A model generated the notes under the pieces. That model had not been told where the DNA came from. It was given only the letters and a program-made list of their open reading frames with translations, and did not search any database. Made by a program: the position numbers and the translations under genes. From positions 31,985 through 95,984 of the IMG/VR virus record IMGVR_UViG_3300022752_000035: a stretch of 64,000 nt of DNA, one strand, 5' to 3'. Shown here one piece after another: positions 14,632 to 45,300 of the stretch (position 1 is its first letter; every line of letters starts with the position of its first letter). This DNA comes from a virus.

Positions 14632-15420
14632 ATGGAAGAATCAATTTCAATTAATAGTTCAGAACTTAATAAAATTACTTCAATCACAGATAATAGCCTT
14701 ATGAATGAATCAAAAGTCGTACCACCAAAGCTCTTTATAAGAAATAATTATGGTTTATTAGAAAATGATAATATTAATTATGTATTTAATGATGATGGAT
14801 CTATTAATTGGAGAGCTATGGTTAAAAGTCAATATCTTGTACCTAATCGTCAAAGGACACAAGAAACAGATGTATCTAAATTAGAAGATAAAGATTTGCT
14901 TATTCTTCTTGGCGGTATTAAAGAGCTCGCTCAAATCAGAGGTTTTACAAGCGTTGAATATAATGTAGTTACAGCAACAGATAATTATTTTGCTACATCT
15001 TGTAGAATTACTTGGATTCCAAATTACGAAACAGAAAATCGCCCAGTTGTATTTGAAGCGCTTGCAGATGCTTCTCTAGTCAATACTAAAGATTTTGCTC
15101 GTTATTTTTTAGCAGCGATTGCAGAGAATAGAGCTTTTGTTCGTTGTGTACGTAATTTCCTAAAAATTAACATTGTATCACAAGAAGAGCTAGGTGATGC
15201 AAAGTTGGGTCTTGTAGCCAAAGAAGATGCTGAAAAAGAAAATCCAATGAATCCCACTGTTTTATTGGAGAGAATTATGCAAGAAAAAAATATTTCTTTT
15301 GAAATTCTAAAGAAAAAACTTATTAAAGAAAAATTTGATGGTGCAGATAGTTTCAATTCAATAAAAGATGTTCCAAAAAGTAAAGTTTTTGAATTGATAG
15401 AGAGACTTAAAAAAATCTAA
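14632..15420 (+). CDS. Rad52/Sak-like ssDNA annealing protein (putative)
   Basis: GGIKELA...EALADA...AIAENRAFVRCVRNFL resembles the Rad52-fold 'A.T.A..RA.R' helix. Confidence 0.5.
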   Translation: MEESISINSSELNKITSITDNSLMNESKVVPPKLFIRNNYGLLENDNINYVFNDDGSINWRAMVKSQYLVPNRQRTQETDVSKLEDKDLLILLGGIKELAQIRGFTSVEYNVVTATDNYFATSCRITWIPNYETENRPVVFEALADASLVNTKDFARYFLAAIAENRAFVRCVRNFLKINIVSQEELGDAKLGLVAKEDAEKENPMNPTVLLERIMQEKNISFEILKKKLIKEKFDGADSFNSIKDVPKSKVFELIERLKKI

Positions 15421-26410: not shown

Positions 26411-28717
26411 ATGGGAATGGGAGAAGTGCCTAATCAAGCTATGCAAGCAAGTGAATATTTTTTGCAAGCGCTTGAGGCTCAAAGATCAATCAATTCGCAT
26501 ATTCATGAGATAGAACCAACAACGCCAGTATTTTTATATGAAATTGATTTAAATGAGATTAAACCTGCAACTATTTCTTATCCAAACAGAAATGGGCCCG
26601 TTAAAGATGGGGTGATAAGAATACATAATGATTTTAATCTTTTTAATATTAATCGAGGAATTATAAAATGGAAAGGTAATCTTTATTTTCCATTTCCTGT
26701 TTATGGTGAACAATTTGATATAACTTCGAATGGCACAATTCCAACTCCTAAAGTTAAATTTTCTAGTCAATTTTTAGATGATGAATTTAATTCATTCTAT
26801 AAATATATAAGAATGCAAATTCAAGAACTAAAAGATATTGTAGGTTCTAAAGTCACAAGAAGAAAAACATTTGTTAGATATTTAAGCCCAGATAATTTTC
26901 CCGCAGGAGTAAATCCTTTTAATACTTTTACAGATACTCCATGGGCATCAAGAGATGGAGAAGCGCTTACTGTAAGATCGTTAGAAAGAGTACCAATTGA
27001 TTTTGCAAAATGGTTAGTTTATACTATCAAATCTATACAAAGTTCAAATAAAATTTTCACATGTCTTCGTACAGACGATAGATTAAAAACTTTAAATATT
27101 AATTTACAAAAACAAATCTATAACTTAAATTCTTTAGATTTTTTTAACTTATTTATTAATGATGATATTAATTTAAGTCCAGACGTATTAGACGCATTTT
27201 CTTCTGATATTTTTATTATTCAATCTAATAATACTTATACAAATATTATTCCTGTCGCTCAAAATGAATTTAAAAAAATAAATACAAATACACCAATTAA
27301 GGTTTTATGTTATTATAGCTTAAGGAATTTCAGTAATACAAGTAGTGCTTTAATAAATTATCCTGTTACTTTTTCTGAATCTAGCTCTGAATTAATGACG
27401 CTTCTTTCTTTTAGATCAATAAATGAAACTATTGCAGAAAAATTTAATTATTCTATATCTACCCAAACCTCAACAAGTTTTACTACTCTATTTTCAAAAT
27501 CTTTAAATGGTAATTTTGATATTAATTATCTAACAATTCCAACGGGTGTTTATACTGGAGTGAATCCATATTCAAATGAAGATGCAAAATTTATTGGATT
27601 AAAACTAAATCCAAATTTTGGTTCTGCTACGTCTGGAGAGTATGATATCGTTTTTCCAGTAACATTTTCGAATGTACCAAAAATATTATTTAATAGTTGG
27701 GGAAGTGCAGGGTTCTTATATGATCAATATTTAAAAAATATTACTTCTACAGGATGTACATTTGTAGCAACTCATACAGGAAACAATGCTCAATTACAGA
27801 CTCAAAATATTAATTTAATTGCAACAGATTACATAACAGACCAACTTACGCCACCAAATAATACTCAAATATATACAGCGTATCAAAATATGGCAAAGAA
27901 TAATTTAAACGAAATAAATCAAAAAAGAATTGATATTTATGAAGTGGAATTAACTCCAGATATATACTATATTGATAGAAAAGTGCAAGAAGATTCTCAA
28001 AATGTTATTTATGAATTAGCTTCATTACTTGATGTCGAAGGAGTAAAATTACCAGGAAGAATTTTATTATCTAAAAATTGTCCATTTACTTATCGTGGCG
28101 AAGGATGTTTGTATGAACGATATGATAGATTAACTGTAGTTCATTCTGGGGTGTATGGAGGGATTGGCTCGGTAATTAATGCAAATTCTACAGCAAATTC
28201 AAATGGTATATCAAAATCTAACTTATCTTTTTCTCAGCAATGTCATGGTCTTCAATCTGCCCCGCCTGTTGCAAACGCTTCGGATAATTCATTTTCTCAA
28301 TATAGGCAAGGAGATTGGAGAGATCGAGGAACATGGCAACAAGGTATAACTTATTATTATGGAAATTATATATATATAGAAAAAAATTATATAAAATATT
28401 ATTTTGTGTGCAAACAACAGCACACAGCCGATTTAATTAATTGTCCACCAAATTCTCAATTCTGGGAGTCTGATACGTGTTCAAAAACTTTAGTTGGTTG
28501 TAGAGCTAGATGGAGAAATAATCCAAATTTTACTAAAAATTTATTATCTGTTAATCATGTTTTTGGTAATAATCAAATTGTTGATCCTTTATTGAAAATA
28601 GAAGTAAGTGCTCCCAAAGATGTTAATGGTACTCAATTAATGGGTGTTTTACCTTTTGGTGGATTCCCATCTGTAGAAGGAAAATTCCAATCTCAACAAA
28701 GTATGCCAGGAGTTTAA
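26411..28717 (+). CDS. lambda gpL-like tail-tip protein with large insertions
   Basis: LYEIDL, RRKTFVRYL..NF, YYIDRK..E..YELAS, CPFTYRGEGC, DTCSKTLVGC, LPFGGFP. Confidence 0.87.
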   Translation: MGMGEVPNQAMQASEYFLQALEAQRSINSHIHEIEPTTPVFLYEIDLNEIKPATISYPNRNGPVKDGVIRIHNDFNLFNINRGIIKWKGNLYFPFPVYGEQFDITSNGTIPTPKVKFSSQFLDDEFNSFYKYIRMQIQELKDIVGSKVTRRKTFVRYLSPDNFPAGVNPFNTFTDTPWASRDGEALTVRSLERVPIDFAKWLVYTIKSIQSSNKIFTCLRTDDRLKTLNINLQKQIYNLNSLDFFNLFINDDINLSPDVLDAFSSDIFIIQSNNTYTNIIPVAQNEFKKINTNTPIKVLCYYSLRNFSNTSSALINYPVTFSESSSELMTLLSFRSINETIAEKFNYSISTQTSTSFTTLFSKSLNGNFDINYLTIPTGVYTGVNPYSNEDAKFIGLKLNPNFGSATSGEYDIVFPVTFSNVPKILFNSWGSAGFLYDQYLKNITSTGCTFVATHTGNNAQLQTQNINLIATDYITDQLTPPNNTQIYTAYQNMAKNNLNEINQKRIDIYEVELTPDIYYIDRKVQEDSQNVIYELASLLDVEGVKLPGRILLSKNCPFTYRGEGCLYERYDRLTVVHSGVYGGIGSVINANSTANSNGISKSNLSFSQQCHGLQSAPPVANASDNSFSQYRQGDWRDRGTWQQGITYYYGNYIYIEKNYIKYYFVCKQQHTADLINCPPNSQFWESDTCSKTLVGCRARWRNNPNFTKNLLSVNHVFGNNQIVDPLLKIEVSAPKDVNGTQLMGVLPFGGFPSVEGKFQSQQSMPGV

Positions 28718-28718
28718 T

Positions 28719-29465
28719 ATGGAATTTAATTCTCAAATTAAAAATTATATTAAAAATCTAGCTGTCAAAAAATTAGAAGAAGAAGTTTGTGGGTTTATAT
28801 ATTTCGATGAAAAAAATTATAAATTTGAAATTTATCCATGTAAAAATAGAGCAGAAAATAAAAAAGATAATTTTACAATATCTCCACAAGACTATTTAAA
28901 TTGCTCAAATTTAGGTAAAATTATAGCTTGTTATCATTCTCATATAAATGAAAATATTGAATTTAGTGAGATAGATAAAAATAATAGTAATATTTATAAT
29001 ATACATTATATACTATATAATATTAAATATGATATTTTTAATATTTATACTCCAAATAAAGAAAATAATCCATATGTTGGAAGACCTTTTATACTTGGCA
29101 AATCTGATTGTTTTACATTAATGCAAGAATATGCATGGAAAGAAAAGAAAGTCAAAATTGAATTTCCAAAAGAATTAATTTACCCAAGATATTTAGAAGA
29201 TATCAAGGATTTATATGAAAATAACTTTAAAAATCAAGGTTTTTTGAAATTAGATAAAAACGTTAAACTTCAAAAATTTGATGGTCTTATGATGCTTTTC
29301 CCAGCTATTTCAGATAAATTTCCAACACATGCCGCAGTTTATATAGGAGATGGCCTTATTTTGCATCAACCATTTAATTCTTTTTCTTGTGTAAATATAT
29401 ATGATAACTTTTTAAAAAAACATACTAGCTATGTTTTAAGGTATAAGGAGCTTATTAATGGTTAA
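28719..29465 (+). CDS. lambda gpK-like tail assembly protein (JAB/MPN + NlpC/P60)
   Basis: EEVCGFI...YHSH.......SEID (JAMM motif); GRPFILGKSDCFTL...HAAVYIGDGLILHQ. Confidence 0.88.
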   Translation: MEFNSQIKNYIKNLAVKKLEEEVCGFIYFDEKNYKFEIYPCKNRAENKKDNFTISPQDYLNCSNLGKIIACYHSHINENIEFSEIDKNNSNIYNIHYILYNIKYDIFNIYTPNKENNPYVGRPFILGKSDCFTLMQEYAWKEKKVKIEFPKELIYPRYLEDIKDLYENNFKNQGFLKLDKNVKLQKFDGLMMLFPAISDKFPTHAAVYIGDGLILHQPFNSFSCVNIYDNFLKKHTSYVLRYKELING

Positions 29466-30768
29466 AGTAAAATTACATGGATTTTTAGGCCAAGAAATTG
29501 GAGAAGAATGGAATCTAAATGTCTCTAGCGTTGCAGAAGCATTTAGAGCTATAGAAGCAAATACAAAAAAATTAACTAAATTTTTTATTAATCAATCTGA
29601 GAAAAATGCAAAATATGAAATATTAATTAATCATCGTCCTTTATGGGTACCAAAAGCAGAAGAAATGCCAACAGATTACAAAGATGTAAATAAAAAACAT
29701 TTTGCAAAATTATATGAATCCGAAATGTTTATGAATTTTGGTTCAGAGTTAAAAACTATAGATATTATACCAATATTAGAAGGAGCTGGTGGTGGAGGGG
29801 GTGCGGCTGGAGGATGTTTTCCAGCTGGAACAAAAATATCTACTCCACAAGGAATTAAAAATATTGAAGATCTTAAAGAAGGCGATGAAATTTTATCTTT
29901 TGATAAAGAGAAAAATATACAAATAGATATGATAGAAAAAGTCTTTGAACATGAAAATAATAAAATTTTAAAAATTACGTTATGGGATGGTTCAATAATA
30001 AGAGCTACAGGAAATCACTGGTTTTTTAATGAATATAATAGATTTACTCCTTTAGAAAATTTTAAAATTGGAGATGTCTTAATACATAAAAGTGGCGACG
30101 TTATGCCAATTGAAAAAATAGAAGAAGATGGAAATGAAAAAGTCTATAATTTTCATGTTTTAAAAAATCATACATATATAGCTGATAATATTTTAGTGCA
30201 TAATGGAGGAGGAGGAAAAGGAGGAGGTGGAGGAAAAGGTGGTGGTGGAGGAGGATTTAAAAGTATTTTTGCTGTATTTTTAGCTATTATTTTAGCTCCA
30301 GTTACAGGAGGCGGCTCTCTTGGTATATTAGGGATGTTAGCTCCTGCAATTTTAGGATTAGTAGCTCTTGGAGTATCAATGTTATTAATGAAGCCGCCAC
30401 CAATGGTAAGTCCTCAACAAATAGCGAATCCTTCAGCGGATTTTGAAGCTTCTCCAGATTCTGGAGGAGGAGAACCATCTTATACATTTAATGGTCCAGT
30501 CAATACAGTAGGTGAAGGTGGACCAGTACCAATTGGTTATGGAAGATTAATTATAGGAAGTCAACAGATTTTTAGTTCATACGATCAATTATATCGTATA
30601 CAATCAAGAAGTAATACATATGAAAGCGATGGTAAAGCGCCAATAGGCGCAGGAGCAGGGGAAAAAAACTATCCAACAAAAAGTTTTTATTTTACTCATG
30701 TTGGTTATCCAATAAACATTCAAGATGTCCAAGGAAATTCAATGTCAGATAGCTCATTATCAATTTAA
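29458..30768 (+). CDS. lambda gpI-like tail assembly protein (ubiquitin-like N-domain) containing a Hint domain
   Basis: VKLHGFLG...SVAEAFRAI...IDIIPILEGAGG; hydrophobic segment; SYTFNGPVNTVGEGGPVPIGYGRLIIGS. Confidence 0.87.
   Translation: MVKVKLHGFLGQEIGEEWNLNVSSVAEAFRAIEANTKKLTKFFINQSEKNAKYEILINHRPLWVPKAEEMPTDYKDVNKKHFAKLYESEMFMNFGSELKTIDIIPILEGAGGGGGAAGGCFPAGTKISTPQGIKNIEDLKEGDEILSFDKEKNIQIDMIEKVFEHENNKILKITLWDGSIIRATGNHWFFNEYNRFTPLENFKIGDVLIHKSGDVMPIEKIEEDGNEKVYNFHVLKNHTYIADNILVHNGGGGKGGGGGKGGGGGGFKSIFAVFLAIILAPVTGGGSLGILGMLAPAILGLVALGVSMLLMKPPPMVSPQQIANPSADFEASPDSGGGEPSYTFNGPVNTVGEGGPVPIGYGRLIIGSQQIFSSYDQLYRIQSRSNTYESDGKAPIGAGAGEKNYPTKSFYFTHVGYPINIQDVQGNSMSDSSLSI
29815..30204 (+). other. 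Hint (intein-like/BIL) domain, 130 aa, inside gpI
   Basis: CFPAGTKI...ATGNH...VYNFHV...TYIADNILVHN, followed by Gly. Confidence 0.9.
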
Positions 30769-30771
30769 TTT

Positions 30772-33700
30772 ATGCCAAAAAAATGTAAAGATTGTGATCC
30801 AAATAAATATATCGAAGGGATAGCCTGGAGAGGAAAAAATGGCATTTCTTATGATGGTTATACTATATATAATGATGTTGGGAAACCGCTTGCATCAGAT
30901 TCAACATTGGCAGATGTAAACGATTTAGTAGATGCTTATAATCCAATTTTTTCTCAAAGCACAACCTATCCAAATCCATTACCAGAGTCTCCCACGAATG
31001 GTGTAGAAATAACTGGTATAGATCGAGGCCAAGGGTTTTGGTTTGTATGGAGTTTTATAAATGGTTTAGTCATGTATGGTACGCCTGGAGTTGGAGTAAA
31101 TGCTGCAAGTATAATTAGCTCAGGAACAGCTTCGGCAAGACTAGGTCAAGGCTTTTCTTTTAATGTACTTTTAGATCAAGTAGCCTCATATTTAACTTAT
31201 ACCGATTTTGGTGTCCTTGCAGACACAAATACAGATGATAGACTAAGATTTAGCAATACAAATAGTAATACAATACCATTTATCAAGACTAAAATTAATT
31301 ATGTAGGATATTATACTGGAATTATTCAGTCCGTCTTAAATGGAAATAGATATGTCAAAATAAATAATGTGACTCAATTAGAAACTTTTAAGGCTTATAA
31401 AAGTTTAACAATAAAATGTACAGATGCAGAAGGCAATGACCCAATATATGTTACTAGTGCACCAACTATACATGTTTTTAAAAACCAAAGTTTTTCTTAT
31501 TCTTTGACTACAAATTTAGCATCAAATAAATTTAATGCTTATTTAGATCAAAGTTCTTTAAATATTTTAGCAAATTTAGGACTAGCATGGAATCCTAGTT
31601 CTAAAACCATAACAGGAGTAGGTTCAACAAATTTAAGTTCAGAGATAAAAAATACAAATTTAAATTTTACTATTTATGGGCCAAATGCAGACGCAGGAAA
31701 TAGAATAAGTTTTAGTTTAAATTTATTATATGGAGCACAAAATACTCAAACAGTATTACCAACGGTTAGCGCTACAACATTTAATCGAGTTGTAGGTACA
31801 AAATTTGAGCAAGGATTAGCAGGCTTAAATAATAAGCATACAATTATAGGAATTTCTTCTTTACCAGAAGGATTAGTTTTTAATTCTACTAGTAAATCTA
31901 TTACTGGAACACCAAAACATGCGGGTACTTTTTATGCATATGCAAGCTGTTCTAATGCTAGAGGATCTAGCTCGAAAGTGACATTAACTTTTAATTTTAG
32001 TCCATATTCACTCAATAATGATAAATCTCAAAGCACTTTTCCAAGTAAAATAAATTTACCTTCATGGGATTTTAATGCTATAAAAAATAATAAAATTGTC
32101 TTAGATCTATATACTACTGGAGATGATATTATATATTTTAAAAAAATTAATACAAATGAATTTGAAACTATAAGAAAAAATGGGGAACCAAATAATATCA
32201 CAAGTAGAGGAGGAAGGATTTCTACAACATCTTTTTCTCCTGGTCAAGGACAAGAAGGCGAAACTTGTTTTTGGATTAAGATTGATGATCCAACTAAAAC
32301 AAATGTTAAAAATCCAGAACTTGATATCTCTATAGAAGGAAATTATGCAATACAATATTATTCTACGAATCAAAAAGATTTAGTAGGAAATGTTTGTTAT
32401 ACTCCAGACGTTAATGCAAGTGGTCCAGCATCTACTCCATTTATACAAAATTTAACAGTAACCGCAACAGATACAATTAAAACAGCTTTTAGCGCAAATC
32501 CAGCCGAAAATATGCCAACCATAACGGTTAGCCCCACTCAAGTAGAGCATCAGGTCGTATTTGATCTTGGAAATTTGGGTGTGGGTGTTACTCCAAATTT
32601 TTCTACAGTCACTATAGTAAAACAGAGATTATCTGGACGAGAAGTAGTCACTGTGACTCCAGGATCACAATATAGAAGTACCATAGAAAATAGCTCAATA
32701 TTTGCTCGACAAAGATTATCTAAAAGTGGACTTTTAAAATATCCAAATGGAATTCCTGCCTCAGAAGGCACATATACATTTTACGTTATTCTTGCTGATA
32801 CATGCACTTTTAATAAAAGCACGCAAAGATTTAGTTTATATATAAATACATATACGCCAAGAGCAGGAGATGTATATTCTTGTAAATATAGAAGTACATG
32901 TTTTCCAGCTGGCACAAAAATACATACTCCACATGGAGATAAAAATATAGAAGATTTAAAAGAAAATCAAGAAGTTTATGGATATGATGAAGATCAGAAT
33001 TTAGAAATATGTAAAATATCTCAAATATTTGACGAAGGAAAAGATCCTCAACCAATTACTAAAGTAACATTAGAAGATGGATCTACTATAAGATGCACAA
33101 AATCTCATCCATTTTTAACAGAAAATAATGAATATAAATTCCTTATAGATTTAAATATTGGTGATTATTTAATGACTTTTAATAAAAAGAAATTAAAAAT
33201 TATCAACATTGAAAACGATGGATTTGAACTTGTGTATAATTTTGAAGTAGAAAAATATCATAATTATATTGCTGATAAAATTTTTGTACATAATAGAGGT
33301 GGAGGAGGTAGAAGAAAGGATAATAAAGAATATTATCAAGATTATACATTACCAAATTCAACTGTACCGAGCAACTGTGTTAAAGTAGTCAGTAGAGCAG
33401 GAGATCGTCAACAAGTAGATAATTATGGTTATAGATATGCAAATAAGTTAAAAGACACAAAAGATATAGGAATAACATCTTTAACAAATATATCTTTATT
33501 AGATATTCTTGGAGAAGGTCCTATTGAGGGAATTGTAGACTATGATATTGTGCCTAATGACGGAGCTCAAATTGGTGATATAGGATATAAAAATGGAGTG
33601 AAAATAGTCAAATATGAAGGTCCAGCATCAATAGTAAGATCTATTTATTGGAATGAAATACCTGTTGCAGATAATACATATCCAGTTAAAGGTTCTTTGA

Positions 33701-36246
33701 ATTTTGAATTTATAAAATTAGCATATGATTATGGTGATGGCGCGCCAAGACATACAGTAATTGAAGAGTTAAAAAATATAAAATTAGAAGAGTCTTTCTA
33801 TGCCAGAAAAGTTAATAATGGTCAATATATACAATCTCTTGTATTAAAAAATGATACTACAGGACAAACTTTAGCAAATGAAATAAAACTCCCAAGAAGA
33901 CTAACAAGCACAAAAGTTGTTGGAAATAAACTTTTTGGAAAAAGGAAATTTCAAGACGGAAGTTCTAAAACTTATAAAAAATCTTTAACAATTTTAACAA
34001 AAGATTTATATGGACTAAGGCTTCATTTAAAAGCTTTAAGTTTATTTAAAAGTGTTGTTGACATGACTATTTGGGATAGCGCCGATCAAGCTTCAAAAAA
34101 CGCAGTAAGTGGCAGAACAGATCGATTGGAAATGACATTTTATCTTTATCTAAAAAGAATAGATTATATTCCAAACGTTGGCAAACAAGTTACAATTATA
34201 CCTAATCCAGATTATACAGGAGTATCAAATGGAACATTTACAATAAGCGAAGAAGCATATTATAATAATATATACAGTAAACAAAATGATGTATTAATTT
34301 TATTCTGGCCACCAGATTGTCCAAATCCAAATAATAGTAATCCTAATTGTAATGGCCCAGATGGATACAAAAGACAACCAGCAAATTATACAGAATTTAT
34401 TAATGGAAGAACAACTTATTCTCATAGACACGACGGAGCAATATATACGGTCTATGCTTTAGACGTCAATAGATTACAAAAAGATTTCCGTACATCTTTA
34501 CAAGATTATATCAATAAACAACAAAGTTCATTAGACGGAGAAGCGAGAGATTATGGTAAATTGACAATTGCTGGAAAATTAAATCAAGGACCATATATAG
34601 AAACTTTTGAATGGACAGGGTTAGATAGATATACAAAATCTACTACAGTTGGTTGGGAAATAGAAATTGAACCAGTCTACGAAGAAAGCGTTGATCCAAA
34701 TATAGTAATAAAAAGTTCTATAGATTCAATAACTGAAATATATGACGATTTATTAGTTTTACCTCATACCGCTGGGGTTTTAACTACATTTGATTCAAGA
34801 TATTTTACTAGTATACCTCAAAGAGCTTATGATACAAGATTGCTTAAAGTTAAAATTCCAAGTAATTATAATCCATATTCAAGAACTTATAATGGAATTT
34901 GGGATGGAAATTTTAATTTAGGCTGGACGGATAATCCTGCATGGTGTTTTTATGATTTAATAACTAATAGAAGATATGGATTAGGAAAATATGTTGATCC
35001 AAATCTTACTGATAAATGGACATTATATGAAATTGCTCAGTATTGTGATCAATTAGTAAGTTCTGGTGGTTCTGGAGATGGAAAAGAACCAAGATTCACA
35101 TGTAACGTATTAATTAGCACTAGAGAAGACGCTTATAAAGTTGTTAATGACATGGCAAGTATTTTTAGAGCCATTGTATTTTATAACGCTGGATTAATAT
35201 TCACCTCTCAAGATAGACCAAAAGAACCAATTTATATATTTAATAATAGTAATGTAAAAGATGGGGAATTTACATATAGCAATACAAGCAAAAGGGTAAG
35301 AAGAAATGTCGCTTTAGTTAGGTATAATGATAAAAATAATTTTTATAAACCAGCGGTAAAATATGTTGAAAGTAGAGAAGGATTAATTAGATTTGGAATA
35401 AAAGAGATGGAAGTAAGTGCCTTTGGTTGCACAAGTGAAGGTCAAGCAGAAAGATTAGGCAAATGGACATTGCTATCTGAAAATTTAGAGTCTGAATTAG
35501 TAAATTTTGAAACAAGTTTACCTGCAATGTATTTAAAACCTGGAGATATTGTATATATACAAGATCAAAATCGTCAAAATAAAATTCTTGGTGGAAGGAC
35601 TTATGAAGTAAGTAGAAATTATGCAATTTTAGATGTAAGATATGAAGATATTTCTGGATTTTTACCAGCGATAAATAGTTGTAATTTTAATATTTTAACA
35701 CCAGCAGGTAATATTGAAATCGGTACAGAAACAGGAAACGCAATTGTAAAATTAACTTCGGAAAATAAATTATTTAGCGTGGTAGGAGATAATGGACAAA
35801 GAATTTTAAGTTCAGGGTTAAGTACATCTTTAATTAGAAAAAAACAAATTCAAACAGTAAAATTTGAATCAAATTATACTATACAAGATCCAATGGATAC
35901 AAATATTTTTAGTAATAACATTAGCATGCAAAATACAGGTAATTTCCAAGGATATACCAGAATAGACTTTGGTGGACAATATTTAGATAACACAGAGCAC
36001 ACTTTAATGCAGAATACTGTTTGGACGATAGAAATTAATCCAGAAAATTATGATTATAATAAAAGTCCAAGCGTTTCTGGATTTAGTAATCCAGGCGTCA
36101 AATATCCAGGAGCATCATTAGAACCCTATATGGATAAAACACAAAAATTTAGAATCTTAGATATTGAAGAACAAGAAGAGTATAGATATAAAATAACTGC
36201 GCTTCAATATGATGAAAGTAAATATGATCTAGGGGATAATATCTAA
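30772..36246 (+). CDS. lambda gpJ-like central tail/hub protein with N-terminal Ig region and Hint domain
   Basis: LDILGEGPIEG, KVKIPSNYNP..R.Y.G.WDG.F...WTDNPAWCFYDL...RYGLG, EPRFTCN, AFGCTSEGQA.R.GKW. Confidence 0.9.
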   Translation: MPKKCKDCDPNKYIEGIAWRGKNGISYDGYTIYNDVGKPLASDSTLADVNDLVDAYNPIFSQSTTYPNPLPESPTNGVEITGIDRGQGFWFVWSFINGLVMYGTPGVGVNAASIISSGTASARLGQGFSFNVLLDQVASYLTYTDFGVLADTNTDDRLRFSNTNSNTIPFIKTKINYVGYYTGIIQSVLNGNRYVKINNVTQLETFKAYKSLTIKCTDAEGNDPIYVTSAPTIHVFKNQSFSYSLTTNLASNKFNAYLDQSSLNILANLGLAWNPSSKTITGVGSTNLSSEIKNTNLNFTIYGPNADAGNRISFSLNLLYGAQNTQTVLPTVSATTFNRVVGTKFEQGLAGLNNKHTIIGISSLPEGLVFNSTSKSITGTPKHAGTFYAYASCSNARGSSSKVTLTFNFSPYSLNNDKSQSTFPSKINLPSWDFNAIKNNKIVLDLYTTGDDIIYFKKINTNEFETIRKNGEPNNITSRGGRISTTSFSPGQGQEGETCFWIKIDDPTKTNVKNPELDISIEGNYAIQYYSTNQKDLVGNVCYTPDVNASGPASTPFIQNLTVTATDTIKTAFSANPAENMPTITVSPTQVEHQVVFDLGNLGVGVTPNFSTVTIVKQRLSGREVVTVTPGSQYRSTIENSSIFARQRLSKSGLLKYPNGIPASEGTYTFYVILADTCTFNKSTQRFSLYINTYTPRAGDVYSCKYRSTCFPAGTKIHTPHGDKNIEDLKENQEVYGYDEDQNLEICKISQIFDEGKDPQPITKVTLEDGSTIRCTKSHPFLTENNEYKFLIDLNIGDYLMTFNKKKLKIINIENDGFELVYNFEVEKYHNYIADKIFVHNRGGGGRRKDNKEYYQDYTLPNSTVPSNCVKVVSRAGDRQQVDNYGYRYANKLKDTKDIGITSLTNISLLDILGEGPIEGIVDYDIVPNDGAQIGDIGYKNGVKIVKYEGPASIVRSIYWNEIPVADNTYPVKGSLNFEFIKLAYDYGDGAPRHTVIEELKNIKLEESFYARKVNNGQYIQSLVLKNDTTGQTLANEIKLPRRLTSTKVVGNKLFGKRKFQDGSSKTYKKSLTILTKDLYGLRLHLKALSLFKSVVDMTIWDSADQASKNAVSGRTDRLEMTFYLYLKRIDYIPNVGKQVTIIPNPDYTGVSNGTFTISEEAYYNNIYSKQNDVLILFWPPDCPNPNNSNPNCNGPDGYKRQPANYTEFINGRTTYSHRHDGAIYTVYALDVNRLQKDFRTSLQDYINKQQSSLDGEARDYGKLTIAGKLNQGPYIETFEWTGLDRYTKSTTVGWEIEIEPVYEESVDPNIVIKSSIDSITEIYDDLLVLPHTAGVLTTFDSRYFTSIPQRAYDTRLLKVKIPSNYNPYSRTYNGIWDGNFNLGWTDNPAWCFYDLITNRRYGLGKYVDPNLTDKWTLYEIAQYCDQLVSSGGSGDGKEPRFTCNVLISTREDAYKVVNDMASIFRAIVFYNAGLIFTSQDRPKEPIYIFNNSNVKDGEFTYSNTSKRVRRNVALVRYNDKNNFYKPAVKYVESREGLIRFGIKEMEVSAFGCTSEGQAERLGKWTLLSENLESELVNFETSLPAMYLKPGDIVYIQDQNRQNKILGGRTYEVSRNYAILDVRYEDISGFLPAINSCNFNILTPAGNIEIGTETGNAIVKLTSENKLFSVVGDNGQRILSSGLSTSLIRKKQIQTVKFESNYTIQDPMDTNIFSNNISMQNTGNFQGYTRIDFGGQYLDNTEHTLMQNTVWTIEINPENYDYNKSPSVSGFSNPGVKYPGASLEPYMDKTQKFRILDIEEQEEYRYKITALQYDESKYDLGDNI
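32899..33294 (+). other. Hint (intein-like/BIL) domain, 132 aa, inside gpJ
   Basis: CFPAGTKI...CTKSHPF...VYNFEV...NYIADKIFVHN, followed by Arg. Confidence 0.9.
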
Positions 36247-39200
36247 TGAATAATCCAACAACATTGCCATCAACAGAAATAGATATAGTTAATATAACAA
36301 AAAATACAAAAGGTTTTAAAATTAGAATAAATCCTATAGAAAATTTAGAAAACATTGAAGCTTATAATATTTATTTAAGTAATTATACATATAGTCTTGA
36401 ACCAAATAGTAACAGCAATAATTTTTTAATTAAACAATTACCTTTTTTAGAAAAAGATCAGTATTTTTATCATATTCCTAAAAATACAGGCTTTTATTAT
36501 TTAACGATTTTCTCTAAAAATGAAGCAGGGTTAGAATCTTCTGGAGTATTATTTACTGGAATTATACCATATCAATCTTTAATTAAAGAAATCAGTATTA
36601 AAAATCTTAATTATTACACAAGTGGAAATATGCAATTAGTTGAAAATCCATTAAATGAAGTAATTTTAAACGAGCCTTATTTATTGCTCGGATATCAATT
36701 GAATTATTCTTCTCCAGTAGAACAAGATTATATAGAAAATCGAGGATTTTATTATCAAGATTTTGTGCCTTATTTTAAAGACCAATATATTAGAGTTTAC
36801 AACCGAGTAATCCCTGCTTTGGAGGCTAATAGTGGAATTTTATTTGATCAAACATTGTTACGTAATACTTCTAACGATGTTTTTACTGCGCAGAGCGTTG
36901 GAAACTCTATAAATAAAAATGTATTTGTTAATGAATTAATTTCTACCCCAGACGTTAAAATTATTCGTTCTCCATCTTATTCATCTATACCATCAGAAAA
37001 TGATAGATATTTTATTTTTGACTATGCTCATAATCATGAGTCTTTTTTAAATGCGAATAGTAAATATATAGAAGGTTTAGATAATAATAATACTATACTT
37101 TTTAATCCAGACGGAGATAATGCAGTAACATTTTTAGATAAATTACTTAATCAGACGGGGATAATTGGAGAGAGACCAACATCTTACGTCAAGATACAAG
37201 AACCTGGTTATTATAATGCTTATTATATAACAGCCGAAGCAATTGATGAAAATGGATTTTCGTCTGCAGGAGGTAATATTAATAACCCCAATGACTTAGA
37301 AAGATATACGAACCAAAATGGATACCAAATAATCAAAGTAAAACATAATACTATTCCAAGAAATAACATTATTAAGATGTTTAAAAATTATCAAAGAGGA
37401 GATAATAATAAAATAATGTTTGAAATTAAAGGTGAAATACCAATTGATATTGGTTTGGAATCAGTTGTAATTATTCCTCAAAAATATGAAGAAAATATAA
37501 ATAATAAACAAAGCAAATCATATTCTGACGATTTTATATATTTAAGAAATTTAAATAAAATAGAAAATAATGTTGAGAAAAATTATTCTGTTGAATTAAT
37601 AGACGCTCAAAGTGAAACAAAATATAGAATAACAACTTATTTAAATCCAGATAGTGTTTTATTAAAAGACAATATTTTCTCTGCGAAAATTTATTATTTA
37701 AATGCTTTACAAAGTTATTCATTAGATTTATATCTAGAAAGAGTCGGATACTCTAATGAAGGGCTATTATATTATATACAAAATACAGATATAATTGACA
37801 AATATATAACTTTAAATAAGTTCATTAAAGATAATAAAAATTATACATCTACAATTGCTGCTAGTTATCAAGGGCTTGTATACTTTTTCACACCAGAAAG
37901 TTTTCCATATATAGCTTGGCCAAATCAAAATTATAGAGATCTTCACCTTAAAAAAGGTGGCGCAAGAATGTTAGATTTTGAATATGATGGAGTAGCTTCT
38001 GGACCAGAATTCTTTGATTATTTCCCATTAGCTCATGCTCAAGAAAATGATAACTTTTTAGTAGGAGATAAATATAAAACTACATATAGATGTTTAGATT
38101 CTTATAAATACATTGGTAATACTAATTATGAATTTTTAACTCCAGAAGATGTTCCTGTTTCTGGAATTTATGGTAGTGATAGTTATCTTGGATCTTATGA
38201 TCCTGGCAACATCGGAGATATGGAATCACCAAATACTGCGGACTTTAAAAGTGTTAATTATGATTTAAATTATTTTAAAGCTAAAAATATTCTTGCAGTT
38301 AAATTTATTAGTGCAGGAATACAAAAAGATGATGCATATGCTATTATTGAATTTGTATTGGATATCCCAGATGCAGAAGACTTTATAGTTCAAGGAATAT
38401 CTGGAACTGATACCATTTTAGAAAAAGGCATAAAAGAGATAAATGGAGTAAATCATCATTACTTTGTAGCGAAATTTGTATCATCATGCGGGGTTGATGC
38501 TGATCCAGTATTAAATAATATACCTATAGATCAAAAAAATATTGTAGATTCTAAAAAGATGATATCGTTCTTAGTTTATCCTACTAAATTTAAAGTTATA
38601 GAAGATCCTGATGATGTTCCATATTTTGGAGATATATACTTATTAGCCACAAGTTCAGATAATAATCAATTTAGTATTTTAAAAGAATGCTTATATACAA
38701 CGTTGAATAATAATTCAGATTGTGTAAAAGGCTGTTGTGTAGATAGTACTGATCCAATTAATTTCAGAACACCATATAAACAATTTTATGTTTTATCTAA
38801 ATTTATAAGTAATCAAACTGGAAATAATTATCCTTTTGGCAAACTTGGTGAAACAACTAATTATGTTTTTGGCTCATTATCTTGGAGATATAAAGCTTTA
38901 GATTATAGTTCTTCTATACATCAAATTCAATATAAAAAGCCAACAATATCTACAAATATGTTAAATTTTGGCATAGTATGTTATCCAGAACATAATGTGG
39001 CATTAGATAAAATATTAATTTATATGAAAAAAGTTGAAGATATAAATAATATTTCTTGGAAAGGCTCAGACTTAATTGATTCTTATACTTTTGATGATAT
39101 AGTTAAAACGTATCCAATTTATTTATCTGTTCCAGATTTTTCATTCTCTAAAAAAGGAACTCAATTATTTGATAAAATAGCAAAAGACTATGATAGTTGG

Positions 39201-39302
39201 ATTAAAAACGGACAAACATTTGCTGTAAGAATATATTTAGTTGATAAAAGCGGAGATACATTATCTCAAGATTTTGCTTTTATTAATAACGAAACTATTT
39301 AA
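36246..39302 (+). CDS. tail protein with FN3-like N-terminus (probable gpJ continuation)
   Basis: TAATG-coupled to gpJ; IEAYNIYLS...YYLTIFSKNEAGLES FN3-like pattern. Confidence 0.55.
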   Translation: MNNPTTLPSTEIDIVNITKNTKGFKIRINPIENLENIEAYNIYLSNYTYSLEPNSNSNNFLIKQLPFLEKDQYFYHIPKNTGFYYLTIFSKNEAGLESSGVLFTGIIPYQSLIKEISIKNLNYYTSGNMQLVENPLNEVILNEPYLLLGYQLNYSSPVEQDYIENRGFYYQDFVPYFKDQYIRVYNRVIPALEANSGILFDQTLLRNTSNDVFTAQSVGNSINKNVFVNELISTPDVKIIRSPSYSSIPSENDRYFIFDYAHNHESFLNANSKYIEGLDNNNTILFNPDGDNAVTFLDKLLNQTGIIGERPTSYVKIQEPGYYNAYYITAEAIDENGFSSAGGNINNPNDLERYTNQNGYQIIKVKHNTIPRNNIIKMFKNYQRGDNNKIMFEIKGEIPIDIGLESVVIIPQKYEENINNKQSKSYSDDFIYLRNLNKIENNVEKNYSVELIDAQSETKYRITTYLNPDSVLLKDNIFSAKIYYLNALQSYSLDLYLERVGYSNEGLLYYIQNTDIIDKYITLNKFIKDNKNYTSTIAASYQGLVYFFTPESFPYIAWPNQNYRDLHLKKGGARMLDFEYDGVASGPEFFDYFPLAHAQENDNFLVGDKYKTTYRCLDSYKYIGNTNYEFLTPEDVPVSGIYGSDSYLGSYDPGNIGDMESPNTADFKSVNYDLNYFKAKNILAVKFISAGIQKDDAYAIIEFVLDIPDAEDFIVQGISGTDTILEKGIKEINGVNHHYFVAKFVSSCGVDADPVLNNIPIDQKNIVDSKKMISFLVYPTKFKVIEDPDDVPYFGDIYLLATSSDNNQFSILKECLYTTLNNNSDCVKGCCVDSTDPINFRTPYKQFYVLSKFISNQTGNNYPFGKLGETTNYVFGSLSWRYKALDYSSSIHQIQYKKPTISTNMLNFGIVCYPEHNVALDKILIYMKKVEDINNISWKGSDLIDSYTFDDIVKTYPIYLSVPDFSFSKKGTQLFDKIAKDYDSWIKNGQTFAVRIYLVDKSGDTLSQDFAFINNETI

Positions 39303-42300
39303 TTAGCGACCTAAGTCTCGTCCTTTGCTTCCTTGATATAATACTCCGCCTGGACGTTGTTCTTCTACAATAACTTTCAATATTTGTTGTCTTAGTAATT
39401 CTGCTAATACTCTGGATCTTTCCATAGTCTTTTTGAACTTTTCTTGATCTGTTTCTTGATTGGTTCCAGAATTTTGATCTTCTTGTTTCGTTGAATCTGT
39501 TGTTTTACCATTTTGATCAACGTTAACATTTATACTAATATTATTTGTTACTCCTCCTGCTCCTGTTGTATCAGAAGTAGTTGCACCACCATCTTCTCCT
39601 TGAGCTTTAGTTCCTTTATTTTGTTCTTCAATTCCTTTATTTAATTGTTCTAAGGATTTTACTAATTTTGTAATAGATTCTACAAACTGATTTCTAGAAT
39701 TATCTTGTTGATTAGAAGCTCCACCACCGACAGAAGGTAATGCTGTTCCAACTGGCCCACCTTCTGCAAATCCATTAATTTGACCTCTGTTTAATCTATC
39801 AAAAAATGGTTGTCCAAAACGATCTACTGTGTCTTTTCTAATAACATATTCTCCGCCCATAAGCATAGCAGGAACATCATCTTTAGCTGAACTTCCTCCG
39901 TAAATCATTCCTCCTGTTGCTCTACTTGCCCAACTTGGAGTGATTCCTAATCTACTTCCAGTAGAAAACCAATTACTAAAAACACTTCCTAAAGAATTAA
40001 ATCCAGATTGATAACCTAGTCCACCAAATCCACCAAAATATTGGCTACCAAATGCATATGGGCTATAAGTATTTGGCGTCATTGGAAATTTAAACATATT
40101 AAATGCAGACAAAGATGAAAATGGACTAGCGCCAATATAATTTAAATAGTTATTAAATCCTCTTTCTCCAAATGCAGAATATCTATTTTTGAAGTTATTA
40201 CCATAAAATGATGAAAATCTTGATGCTAATTTTCCGTAATCTCCTTTATTTTTTAGATCATATAAACTTCCAATACTTTGATATAAAGTAGGAGCATTTC
40301 CAGAAGTTTGATTTACAATATTTTGTAAATTTTGGAAAAATGGCAGGATTTGATCTGGAGATATTTGATTGATTCCTAAAAAGTCTTGTTGAGTAATAGC
40401 TTGAGCAACTGCTTGGGTAGTTTGTGGAGTGACTTTAGTGCCTCTTAAATAATCTCCCATAGCAGGAGATGGAAAACTCATTCTAGTTTGATATCCAGCA
40501 TTAGGATTAAAAATACTTTTTTCATATAAATTTCCGCCTAAATTATATAAAGCATTATAACCTTTACCAGCTAAATTTTTCATTCCACCTAAACTAGCCA
40601 TCAATGCTCCACCAATTCCACCAGCTCCTCCTCCAATCGCTGGCATTTTTATTCCAGCATTAGAAATTGTATTTGTAACGCCACCTTGAGGAATATTAAA
40701 TGGAGTGGCATTTAATCTATTAGTATTGAAAGCAGCAGAACTACCAGTAAAGGTAGGAGTATTAGTTGATTTTAAGAAGTTTGTTACAACATTAGCACTT
40801 CTTGCTTGATTTGCAAATGGGTTAGGCTGTATTCCTATGGTATTTATTCCATTAGTTATACTATTTGTTGGACCAGAAAAAGCTGTTAATGGAAATGATT
40901 GTTTTGATGGTAATCCAAAACCAGCCATAACAGCAGGAGTATTTGTACCAGCTATATTTCCTGCTGGAATACCCATATTCATTGCTGCAATTTTTGTTGC
41001 ACCAGTTTTATTTAATTGAAAATCAAAATGAGTTCCAGTCGCTCCAGGAGTTTGAGGCCCTTCAAAATTTAAAGAATAATCTTTTTCAGAAAGACCCATG
41101 CTAGATAAATAATCTTTAATTTGCTGTTTACCAGCTGTATAATCGTTTAATGTAAAGTCTCCTTTAAATCCAGTTCTATGAGATGTTCCTGGAGCTCTGA
41201 CTCCAGCATGATAAAGATCATTCATTGCAGTTAATCTGTTGAAATTAGAACCTAAAGCTCCTTGAATTCCACTCATTAAATTTAATAATTCTGGACTATT
41301 ATATCCACCACCAAAAGCTTGACCACCCATTTTTTGTAAATCTGCATACGTACTATTAGTTGTTAATCCCATTTGAGCTAATGTGTAAGTATTTCCATCT
41401 GAACCTTTAACTCTTAAATTTAAAGCGCTCGCTGGAAGATATTGATTTGCCATACCACCAACTTGATAACCACGAACTAAACCACCTTTTGCGTAACCTC
41501 TGCTATAACCAAAAGGGTTTGTATTTTGATTTAAGAAATCATAAACAAGATTTCCACGCCCAGGAGCAATAGGAGCTACAGGAGAAGCAAAATTTAAAAG
41601 ATAATCTTGTTGAGCATTTTGAGTATAAGTTTGAAAACCTGCTGGCGCGCCTAATCCAACACCAAATTGAAATCCGCCGATACTAGAGGTTGGAGCAAAA
41701 TTTTGTCCTCCCATTCCTCCGCCAAATCCACCTTGATTTCCAAATTGTGGAAATAATTGAGCTTGTTGAGCGAATGAATCTCCATATCCTGTTCTTTGAC
41801 CTCTTTCAATTGCATCGCTTATAGCTTTTTTCTGATCATCTGTAAGCTTATTACCTACTATTGCTCCACCAGGTTGACTAGAAAATTGTGAGAATTTTCC
41901 TCCTAAAATATCTTGAAAAAGTCCTACTCCTGTATTAAGTACTCCACCTAATATGCCTCCAAGTCCTCCCCCGCCACCTCCCCCGCCAAAACCACCTAAA
42001 AATGGACCAGCAAGATTCATACCAAAGTTCAATAATCCACCAATTAACATATTTGATTTTGCTCGATTATATTGATCCATCCTTTGTTTATTTATTTCAT
42101 CCGCTTGTCTTTGAGCTTCTTTTCTTTGTTCTTCAACTTGACGATATTGTTCATTATATCCTGTTTTAAAATTAGCTACTTGCTCTTGGTAACTTTGCAT
42201 TCCTAAAAATCTTTGAGTTCTTAGAGCGTTCATTGGATTATTCTCATCCATTAAACTTCTACTACTTAATAGATCTGATATATTAAATCTTCCTGTTAAA

Positions 42301-45300
42301 GCTGGGACATTACTTAATTCTTCTGGAGCATTTACTGTAGTTTTAAATGCTTCTGGCATATAATTTTCAATTAATTTTTGTCCATCAGGACCATAGAAAT
42401 CATAACTATTATTTAGTAATGCATTAACGCTTCCACCGCTAGCATATCCTTTTATCATTCCACCTCTATTAAGCATATTTAAAGCGTCTATACCATATTT
42501 ATTAACTGCACTTTTTCTTAACACATATTCGCCATCTGTAAGCATCGCTGGAATATCATCACGAACTCCACTTCCACCTTGAACATGACCACCAGAACTA
42601 TATTTACGAATTATCCCACCTTGAGCTTTTCCTCCAAATAATCCTCCAAAAAGACTACTTAATATTCCACCTCCACCGCCTTCGTTATAACCTCCACCTC
42701 CAGTTAATCCACCAAGCAAACTTCTCATACCAATACTAAATTGTTCTTTAATAATTTGTTGAGATATACTTAATAACATATCTTGAAAAGCTTGATCTGC
42801 TGTTTTTGTTCCATCAACAAATGCGCCAAATGCATCTTCGAACCCAGTTTGTAAATTATCAGCAAGATTTGCAAAAGATTTATTAATTTTATCTGCTGTT
42901 GTAGCAGCATTATCACCAAAACGATCAAAGAAAGAATTAAGTGGATCAAATCCTTCTTTAAAATTACCTTGTTTTAATGATCTTTCCATTAAACTTTGAC
43001 GAGCTGCAGCTCTTTCATCAGAAAACATATATTGAGAATTTTTACCAAATTCAATTTTATCTATTGCTAATTTTAATCTTTCAAAAGCTTGAGTAGTTGT
43101 AATAGCTCCACTATTCCAATCTTTCTGTATCTCTGCGGCCTTTTGAACATATTCGCTTAAATATTTTACTCTATCTGCGCCATAACCTAATTCATCACTT
43201 AATTGTTTATATCCTGTACTAAATTGTTCACCAAAAGCTTGGCTTTTACCAACGCTTAATTTCTGTTCTATTGAATTATAATCTATATTACCTAAAGCAG
43301 CAGAAGTAATTCCTCCAGGAAGAGAAAATTGCCTTTGTAATGCTTGAAGATCTGTAATAGGTTTTATACCTTGAGTAAATTTAGCAGTTTCTTCTGCTAG
43401 TGCTTGTGCATATTTTTCTACGCTTGTTTGATGATCTTTCCAAGCTTGTATATATTCTCCTAATGTTCCTTGTTGATCTACTTTTTGTAATTCTTCTGCT
43501 ATTAATTTAGAATATTCTCCAGTACTAACTAATCCATCTACTAAATTCTTGATTCCATTTATACCTCCTGATTGATAGGCTGCTTGAAGTTTTCCAATAT
43601 CAACACTACCTATAGCTTCTCCTGTTTTACTAAAGTTAGCAAAAAGATCAGATAATTGTTGTCCAGCAGTTTGTATGTAACCTCTATAACTCATTTGATC
43701 TGTTTGACGCATTCCTTTAATTTTTTCTTGTGGAGTTTTTAAGAAGTCACTAGTGAAAAAATCATACCATTTTTCACCTGCTAAATCATTTATTTTTTGA
43801 GTTGTGCCTAATAGTCCACCACCAGCCGCAAGTCCTTTTGATTCTCTTTGAGCTTTAATTTGAACTTCACTTATTTTTTGTCTTAATTCTGCAGTATCAC
43901 CTATTTTTCTATAAAGATCAACGATTTCATCTCCAGCTCCTGGAAGCGCTTGATTTAATTGAGTAATACTTTTAGCAAAATCTTGCTCAGATTTATTTCT
44001 TAAATCTAATCTTGTTTTTGCATCTAAATCTGATCTGCCTTCTATTGAACTTAAAGTTTCTAAAGATACTGATAAATTTTGAGTCGCAGCAGAAATACTA
44101 TTAAATTTTTCTGTTGAAGTTTCTATAGATTTTGCAACATCTGGCATGATATCATTTAATTTTTGAAATACATCATAAGCCGCCATAATACCACCAACTC
44201 CAGCACCAATAGCTGCCCCAGGCAATCCACCAACAGTAAATCCTAATCCAGCATAAGAAGCTGTTGTTCCAAGTCCAGATATTCCAGCTTTAAGGGCTCG
44301 TCCTCCACGAGTGCTTTCGTCTCCAATAAATTGAGCAGCTGTATCTGTTAATAATGGTGCGGCTAATGCAAGTCCAGCTCCATATCTACTAAAAGCTCTG
44401 CCAGCGACTCCGCCAATTCCACCTACAAAACTTCCACCTTTTCTAGCAAATATTGGAGTTTGAGCCGATAAAGTTTGTCTTTGAGATGTTTCTTCTCTTA
44501 ATAATGAAGTTCTTTGAGATTCTAATTCATTTAATCTTGCTCTATTTTTCTTTGAATTTTTTGAAAGAGCTAATATTTCAGATTCTACTCTTCCTCTTTC
44601 ATTTAAGATTGCTCCTAATCTTTGCTCTTCAACTTTATAATTAGATCGAGCTTGATTTCCTCCAAATCCTTGTAAAATATAAAATAAACTCATTGGGTCC
44701 ATAGCCGCAAAATTAGGTATAAATCCTGCAGACATCATACTTTGCATTTTCTTAGAATTTTGAATAGCATTACCAATTCCCTCTGGATGATCTCTCATTA
44801 CTGCTGCAAAATTTGGTTGAGTTTTACCATCTCTAACATATAATCCAAGTCCAGGTTTAAAATCTAATACTCCTCTTCCACCCATCTTTTCTTCAGTACT
44901 TAAAGCTCGATCTAATGGAGAAAAATTAGGAATAAAACCAAGAGCTTTTGTTTTACCTTTAGTCTTTAATGGATATCCCTTACTGGATGCGATTTTATCC
45001 GCCATACTATTTGCTTGAGATGGATTTAAAGCATTCTTAACTTCTCCAAGAGAAAACATCGCCAAAGGTCCTGCGCCTTTAAAAGTTGTTGAAAGTTTTT
45101 TTAATTCATCCGAGCTAAGATCTAACGGAGCATTAGGATCATCTACTGCGCTAAATATTGCTGATTTTAATCCTGCTTCAAAAATACCTCCAATTGCAGC
45201 TTCTATTGTAGAACGATTAAGATTCGCATTAACATAGTTATCAAATCTTGCATCATCTACTAAATCTTTTGGTTTTAAAGCTGCCTTATCTATAAATGTA

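Follow-up and report, generated by a model that had tools for sequence, protein, structure and literature searches.

A BIL-like Hint domain between the Ig-rich module and the core of a phage gpJ-type tail-tip protein

What does a Hint domain do in the middle of a phage tail-tip protein? Hint and BIL domains have been described in polymorphic toxins and in proteins that bacteria secrete, and inteins in the replication and packaging enzymes of phages. In the 64,000-nucleotide stretch of DNA analyzed here (the window), one such domain lies within the gpJ-type protein of a lambda-type tail-tip module. The window is part of a linear IMG/VR virus record of 96 kb, which is estimated to be 63% complete. 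The phage is uncultured, and its stretch occurs in public sequencing runs from freshwater and lakes, among which no RNA dataset is listed. The tail-tip genes and their large neighbors are as follows.

26411-36246, + strand: lambda-type tail-tip module in the order L-K-I-J
26411-28717, + strand: gpL homolog, 768 aa, carrying a large insertion
28719-29465, + strand: gpK, with JAB and NlpC/P60 domains
29458-30768, + strand: gpI, 436 aa
29815-30204, + strand: paralogous Hint within gpI (residues C120-N249, Gly at +1), 49% identical to the gpJ Hint
30772-36246, + strand: gpJ-type tail-tip protein of 1824 aa (open frame, PF13550, phrog_31)
36246-39302, + strand: large ORF of 1018 aa directly after gpJ, with no Pfam or PHROG match
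39303-47645, − strand: tape-measure gene, 2780 aa
15417-20891, − strand: large ORF of 1824 aa, with no Pfam or PHROG match

The frame at 30772-36246 reads without interruption through 1824 codons when translated, and its product belongs to the gpJ type. Pfam places Phage-tail_3 (PF13550) at residues 1450 to 1604 with 67.2 bits, which is above threshold, the PHROGs profiles assign the C-terminal two-thirds of the protein to "central tail fiber J" (phrog_31, E = 1.5e-126), and homologs of gpL, gpK, and gpI precede the gene. The L-K-I-J order is shared with the systems of the lambda gpJ and T5 pb3 hubs, as is homology to gpJ from residue ~870 on. Lambda gpJ, however, has neither the 700-aa N-terminal module nor the Hint, and the window differs further from the lambda module in carrying an insertion of ~350 aa in gpL and a Hint in gpI. 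The parts of the window gpJ (residues 1-709, the N-module; C710-N841, the Hint; then the J core) are laid out as listed below.

30772-30969, + strand: N-terminal peptide, residues 1-66, with CxxC and PNKYxEG (from conservation, pLDDT, and hhalign)
30970-32898, + strand: Ig-rich body of the N-module, residues 67-709 (from AlphaFold, Foldseek, and phmmer)
31756-32004, + strand: He_PIG-type repeat, residues 329-411 (from phmmer)
32899-33294, + strand: mini-Hint without endonuclease, C710-N841, 132 aa (from PF14890, phmmer, and AlphaFold/Foldseek)
33295-33510, + strand: post-Hint linker and lineage-specific start of the core, residues 842-913, starting RGGGGRRK
33511-36243, + strand: gpJ core from GEGPIEG on
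35119-35583, + strand: Phage-tail_3 within the core, residues 1450-1604

The hallmark gpJ motif GEGPIEG first occurs at residue 914, which is 72 residues past the Hint. The intervening segment (residues 842-913) is found in Hint-less and split relatives as well, and from about residue 870 onward the protein can be aligned with the outgroup gpJ core.

The original prediction placed a Hint between an Ig-rich N-terminal region and the gpJ core, and this arrangement is confirmed by translation, Pfam, phmmer, and AlphaFold/Foldseek. The He_PIG-like repeats that it named in the N-terminal region remain below threshold in Pfam (PF05345, 18 bits at residues 322-407, where the cutoff is 24 bits), and they are backed by phmmer repeat matches and by an Ig-like AlphaFold model. 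Specifically, residues 329 to 411 match hundreds of multirepeat proteins in phmmer searches of the full library (E down to 1e-49), the N-module outside these residues is confined to a small family, and precomputed PF05345 matches exist in relatives. The AlphaFold model of the N-module, built from a 34-row alignment (mean pLDDT of 78), consists of disordered residues 1 to 66 followed by chained β-sandwich domains. With the whole 709-aa model as its query, Foldseek returned generic Ig-repeat matches only, namely cadherins, titin, Robo, the Bacteroides surface glycan-binding protein SGBP-B, Gram-positive adhesins, and a phage tail protein. Because the model is of the Ig type, the Foldseek matches agree with it, and a He_PIG-type repeat is present, "Ig-rich adhesin-like" is a fair label for the predicted structure of this module.

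The N-module is the fast-evolving part of gpJ, and conservation within it is highest in residues 1 to 66, where 27% of the alignment columns are invariant, those of CxxC and PNKYxEG among them, versus 7 to 11% across the remainder. Despite this conservation, the segment is predicted to be disordered (pLDDT of 34-49). Segments that are conserved yet disordered are typical of peptides that fold upon a partner, and we infer that residues 1 to 66 form a candidate docking peptide. The closest gpJ proteins without the module also begin with the sequence PNKYxEGL (hhalign, 24 columns, P = 7.6e-5, which is suggestive). Since this peptide is common to the N termini of module-less gpJs, the N-module seems to have expanded behind a peptide that ancestrally formed the gpJ N terminus, and it does not look like a foreign pro-region. 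An invariant CxxC (C5 and C8; window positions 30784-30795) sits in the same disordered peptide and is missing from the outgroup gpJs that have the PNKYxEG peptide. The three CxxC copies of a trimer could bind metal.

The Hint itself is flanked by Thr709 at the −1 position and by Arg842 at the +1 position, with which the sequence RGGGGRRK begins. Pfam Intein_splicing (PF14890) matches residues 724 to 807 with 46.5 bits (cutoff 35.8), and PT-HINT (PF07591) matches residues 717 to 839 with 23.2 bits, under its cutoff of 27.7. The expected blocks are present as CFPAGT (block A, including Cys1), T-K-S-H (block B), VYNFEVE..HNYIA (block F), and VHN (block G, ending in N841). None of the 15 aligned gpJ Hints deviates at Cys1, the block B His, VYN, or HN, and in two of them the block B Thr is replaced by Asn. 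When phmmer was run against PDB sequences, the domain matched the DnaE intein (E = 1e-8) along with the gp41-1 and DnaB inteins, and it matched the Clostridium thermocellum BIL domain 2LWY over its full length (E = 3e-5), which is no better than the matches to true inteins. AlphaFold predicts a HINT fold for residues 700 to 863 (pLDDT of 88.3, pTM of 0.81). Foldseek relates this model with a probability of 1.00 to the DnaB mini-intein, 2LWY, the Tetrahymena BUBL BIL2 domain, gp41-1, and Hedgehog (1AT0), and its superposition on 2LWY (TM of 0.85, rmsd of 2.2 Å) is as close as those on true inteins.

Each of the 16 Hints of the family has R, G, I, or M at the +1 position, and none has C, S, or T. 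The original prediction took the Arg at this position to exclude classical splicing. Class 1 trans-esterification is indeed ruled out by such a residue, whereas splicing of the BIL type remains compatible with it (PMC7664689). The residues that follow vary among the 16 Hint-bearing relatives (RYGAN, GAYRG, MGYSP, IGNLS, and others), and Gly makes up 37% of positions +1 to +5 in a hand count of the first 15 family Hints. This Gly-rich stretch is missing from the linkers of Hint-less relatives and is similar to the Gly linkers that flank the gpI Hint and the N-terminal Hints of other gpJs. Judged from these sequences, the Gly-rich residues may travel with the Hint cassette rather than mark the terminus of a J protein. 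The idea that processing exposes a canonical Gly/basic gpJ N terminus thus loses ground, both through the variability of the post-Hint residues and because the PNKYxEGL peptide of the nearest module-less gpJs aligns to the start of the N-module instead of to residue 842. Nothing decisive on the position of the gpJ N terminus was found in the lambda tail-tip literature. As a separate observation, a conserved Cys-pair motif (…IGTVQC-GKWGCQI…) follows the Hint in seven relatives (P0009, P0019-21, P0023, P0026, and P0042) and is present neither in the window gpJ nor in Hint-less relatives.

A protein search of 5.8 billion sequences recovered relatives that contain both the N-module and the core, with 42 to 68% identity, and their junctions were aligned between the conserved sequences GDVYSCxY and N.TLTSS.VP.NC. 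Three natural states are evident. The Hint bridges the two parts in 16 sequences (the window protein, P0005, P0009, P0019-23, P0025-28, P0030, P0031, P0042, and L007). The parts are directly fused in ~19 protein clusters that lack a Hint and instead have a short linker, whose length and sequence depend on the lineage. This fused state is the commonest in nature, and no obvious cleavage motif is seen at the junctions of these ~19 clusters. In the third state, represented by four to five clusters, the N-module is encoded by a separate gene and the core carries its own ATG. A search for shorter proteins yielded standalone N-modules of 675 to 697 aa in four clusters, from several contigs of independent sources, which terminate 5 to 14 residues past GDVYSC.Y. 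The gene split is real, because the DNA of the L005 locus has a TAA followed two bases on by the core ATG in a different frame, and that of L084 has two in-frame stops followed by an ATG. The core encoded by split genes starts within about 10 residues of where a cleaved core beginning with Arg842 would start. The Hint-less allele was found in none of the contigs from four freshwater and lake DNA runs, which is uninformative since contigs drop rare variants. One "joint" reported in these run contigs was discarded, as it reflects no more than the likeness of the gpJ and gpI Hints over their initial 67 nt.

These states bear directly on the proposal that the protein is processed to release its N-terminal region. 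Such a release is plausible, given that the separate N-module gene of relatives ends within 5 to 14 residues of the N-terminal junction of the Hint. Processing as a necessary maturation step, on the other hand, conflicts with the ~19 related clusters that join the N-module to the core directly. In our view, the gpJ Hint is probably a self-processing cassette of the type-A BIL-like kind, intact and free of an endonuclease, which cleaves the two parts of the protein from each other and which is itself optional. Most likely, a thioester would form at Cys710 by an N-S acyl shift after translation, hydrolysis would then release the N-module, and cyclization of Asn841 would free the core. The products would be two separate chains and a discarded 132-aa Hint, and each of the two chains would start and end within about 10 residues of the corresponding separate-gene protein of sister phages. 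Were any of the protein spliced, it would be the counterpart of the fused, Hint-less relatives. The Hint would be able to remove itself because it is catalytically intact and under selection to remain so, and it would be optional because other sister phages function with the parts fused and without a Hint, such that the site tolerates either outcome. As the cleaved and the fused forms are both viable, a Hint without an endonuclease can persist in this linker and can be lost imprecisely. It would be kept because it removes itself, and not through any need for it in tail assembly. The N-module would probably be kept on the virion by residues 1 to 66, its conserved N-terminal peptide.

That cleavage prevails over splicing is inferred here, as is all of the Hint chemistry. 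With BIL domains that lack a +1 nucleophile, cleaved products predominate (PMC7664689; PMC7765530). What counts against cleavage is that the junction nucleophiles are both conserved, a pattern that is equally compatible with splicing. In a noncanonical splicing reaction, the amine of Arg842, once liberated by Asn cyclization, would attack the thioester at Thr709, and the N-module would be ligated to the core. This outcome would regenerate the fused state that is commonest in nature, and the predicted fold is as near to the true inteins as it is to 2LWY. Splicing in the absence of a +1 nucleophile was reportedly described by Dassa et al. in 2004 (J Biol Chem) and by Aranko et al. in 2013 (FEBS J). 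Nevertheless, we regard splicing as unlikely to be the main outcome, both in view of the cleaved products that the two reviews give for such domains and because a bulky +1 residue (R, I, or M), as found in nine of the 16 Hints, should disfavor aminolysis.

The evolutionary record of the Hint also argues against its being an inactive relic, one that has ceased to process and that the mature protein retains as a spacer. A linker that tolerates widely differing lengths and sequences could accommodate such a relic, but C1, the block B His, VYN, and HN have been retained in 15 of 15 Hints at an identity of only 45 to 75%. Moreover, dN/dS is 0.27 to 0.30 for the gpJ Hint (two pairs), where the N-module gives 0.26. 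The gpJ Hint evolves under purifying selection, and we find the relic explanation hardly credible.

The distribution of the Hint within the family is patchy. In a tree of the gpJ cores, the basal lineages all bear a Hint, and in a crown clade of 16 proteins only the window protein and its sister P0005 have one, such that at least four gains or losses are required. P0025 and P0029 have near-identical cores, one with the Hint and one without it, and the junctions are imprecise. With all basal lineages bearing it, the Hint could originally have been functional rather than neutral. The window gpJ Hint shares 75% identity with its P0005 counterpart, 45 to 61% with other gpJ Hints, and 49% with the Hint of its own gpI. 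A tree of the Hints separates those of gpJ from those of gpI weakly (80/48), and because the gpJ Hints group so weakly, the tree would fit vertical persistence with losses and regain by recombination alike. An origin of the gpJ Hint by recent copying from the adjacent gpI gene was rejected, given the 49% identity and the separate groups in the tree. Base composition was likewise considered as a sign of recent horizontal acquisition and proved uninformative: the GC content of the gpJ Hint is 23.7%, its flanks are at about 30%, and the gpI Hint is equally low at 24.6%.

The original prediction had called the gpJ Hint the second of two, and a first one is indeed nearby, at residues 120 to 249 of gpI. 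It passes the PF07591 threshold with 43.6 bits, and it occurs in all 11 related loci that were examined. With a dN/dS of 0.04, it evolves as slowly as gpI itself, in contrast to the optional gpJ Hint. Its position is exactly between the ubiquitin-like domain of gpI, which ends in ...EGAGGGGGAAGG, and the Gly-rich/TM/plug part of the protein. At the DNA level, the gpJ and gpI Hints are alike at their ends: 57 of 66 nt (86%) are identical at the start (32899-32964 versus 29815-29880) and 50 of 66 nt (76%) at the end, whereas identity in the middle is about 55%. This likeness of the ends could support recombination between the adjacent gpI and gpJ genes.

Hints also occur elsewhere in the gpJ proteins of more distant relatives. 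Some have a related Hint at the extreme N terminus, within an IIxGAGGGG leader, and have Hint-less sisters (L033, L034, and L072). Some of the more distant gpJs (P0189-P0192) have two tandem N-terminal Hints with GGGGKGG between them (…RGAGG/C…VHN/GGGGKGG/CFPAGT…, where slashes mark the boundaries). The N-terminal Hint of the gpJ at L075:9944-10600 has Thr at +1, and for this domain classical splicing is possible. It carries IRGAGGGGG on both flanks in the manner of a duplicated target site, and its Hint-less sister L072 has a single copy.

The universality of the gpI Hint is among the facts that favor an adaptive polyprotein, wherein the gpJ Hint would be a domesticated maturation domain, the single chain would secure 1:1 stoichiometry or coassembly, and cyclization of Asn841 would be required to free the N terminus of the core for the hub. 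That the gpI Hint is present in 11 of 11 loci and so strongly constrained indicates that Hints can become fixed in the tail-tip module. Every basal lineage of the gpJ family is Hint-bearing, the catalytic residues show no variation and evolve under purifying selection, and the Gly-rich residues after the Hint resemble the N termini of ordinary gpJs (GAGGGGKGGGG). Even so, the ~19 fused Hint-less clusters and the four to five split clusters indicate that neither cotranslation nor cleavage is required, the sequence after the Hint is not conserved, and the conserved ancestral N-terminal peptide is at residue 1 and not at residue 842. We therefore regard the adaptive polyprotein as doubtful. As a description of the predicted chemistry, the term "autoprocessed polyprotein" used in the original prediction is reasonable; the necessity of processing, the canonical N terminus, and the likeness to toxin delivery that came with it are all weakened.

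The neighboring gpI Hint also bears on a conceivable thioester capture reaction of the kind known from Hedgehog and ciliate BUBL proteins, by which a nucleophile of a tail protein or a small molecule would attack the Cys710 thioester and relocate the N-module covalently. The fold of the gpJ Hint matches those of Tetrahymena BUBL BIL2 and Hedgehog, and another Hint, that of gpI, lies behind a ubiquitin-like domain in the adjacent gene. We nonetheless judge this reaction to be highly improbable, since Hint-less and split relatives persist although they are incapable of such a step, and the minimal 132-aa Hint has no sterol-recognition or acceptor-binding extension. It is also very unlikely that the Hint acts either as a regulated switch, such as a redox- or assembly-dependent one that determines whether an adhesin is tethered or released, or as a cross-linking ligase. 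In the ligase version of this joint proposal, to which the same low probability applies, a different tail-tip protein would capture the Thr709 thioester, perhaps in concert with the Ubl-Hint of gpI. If true, this would amount to a covalently cross-linked tail tip built without ATP.

A self-processing cassette that is probably removed by cleavage is best filed, among known systems, as a type-A BIL-like domain that would excise itself from a tolerant linker. Of the traits of type-A BIL domains, which also include family-specific sequence motifs reportedly defined by Amitai et al. in 2003, this class assignment rests on the HN ending, the non-nucleophilic +1 residue, the hypervariable region, and the lack of an endonuclease. 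The features shared with type-A BIL domains are a mini-Hint with Cys1, TxxH, and a C-terminal His-Asn (VHN/R), the lack of a +1 nucleophile and of a homing endonuclease, and a location where a variable, adhesin-like protein is hypervariable; by analogy, N- and C-terminal cleavage would be expected here. Unlike the bacterial secreted proteins that host BIL domains, the host here is a hub protein J of a phage virion tail tip, and by sequence the gpJ Hint is at least as close to class 1 mini-inteins (DnaE at E = 1e-8, gp41-1, and DnaB).

Those phage mini-inteins (terminase, helicase, and portal; gp41-1) share with the gpJ Hint the fold, the catalytic blocks, a PF14890 match above threshold, and polymorphism for presence or absence at one site among homologs. 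However, a +1 Cys, Ser, or Thr is lacking in 16 of 16 gpJ Hints, the domain sits in an unconstrained linker rather than in a conserved active-site motif, and its loss is imprecise (P0025 versus P0029). A classical class 1 intein was rejected, as the +1 residue does not fit and neither do the site and the manner of absence, despite the PF14890 match. The original prediction had also compared the protein to pretoxin-Hint delivery. Pretoxin-HINT domains (PF07591) do share the HN ending, the non-nucleophilic +1 residue, a position behind a large N-terminal region for delivery or adhesion and ahead of a C-terminal module, and a predicted autoproteolytic release, and the PF07591 threshold is passed by many relatives and by the gpI paralog. 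The comparison describes the putative chemistry, but it does not extend to the cargo: the gpJ Hint scores 23.2 bits where 27.7 are needed, a structural gpJ core follows it rather than a toxin or other delivered cargo, and an immunity gene is absent here.

A BIL-type Hint in a tail-tip structural protein is without precedent in the literature and the deposited phage genomes that were searched. A full-text literature search found no description of a BIL-type Hint in a virion tail-tip hub protein, and among 50,697 GenBank phage records related Hints occur only in helicase, terminase, and portal genes and in no tail protein. The locus provides a natural three-way comparison at one junction (fused, Hint-bridged, and split gene), which directly shows where a sloppy self-processing domain can survive and suggests how a Hint can make a gene fusion behave as two genes. 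BIL chemistry with Arg, Gly, Ile, or Met at +1 could also be tested in a simple manner with the gpJ Hint family. To phage biologists, the locus points out a detachable Ig-rich gpJ module that has its own conserved N-terminal peptide.

Several features of the surrounding genes are observations in their own right. The Phage_tail_L match of the gpL homolog is interrupted by its insertion of ~350 aa (roughly residues 170-515), for which no family match was found. The protein is 768 aa in length here and 767 to 805 aa in relatives, compared with 232 aa for lambda gpL. The 1018-aa ORF that directly follows gpJ may encode a fiber. The ORF at 15417-20891 equals gpJ in length at 1824 aa, apparently by coincidence. 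Finally, the tape-measure gene converges on the tail-tip module from the − strand, whereas in lambda it lies upstream of M-L-K-I-J on the same strand.
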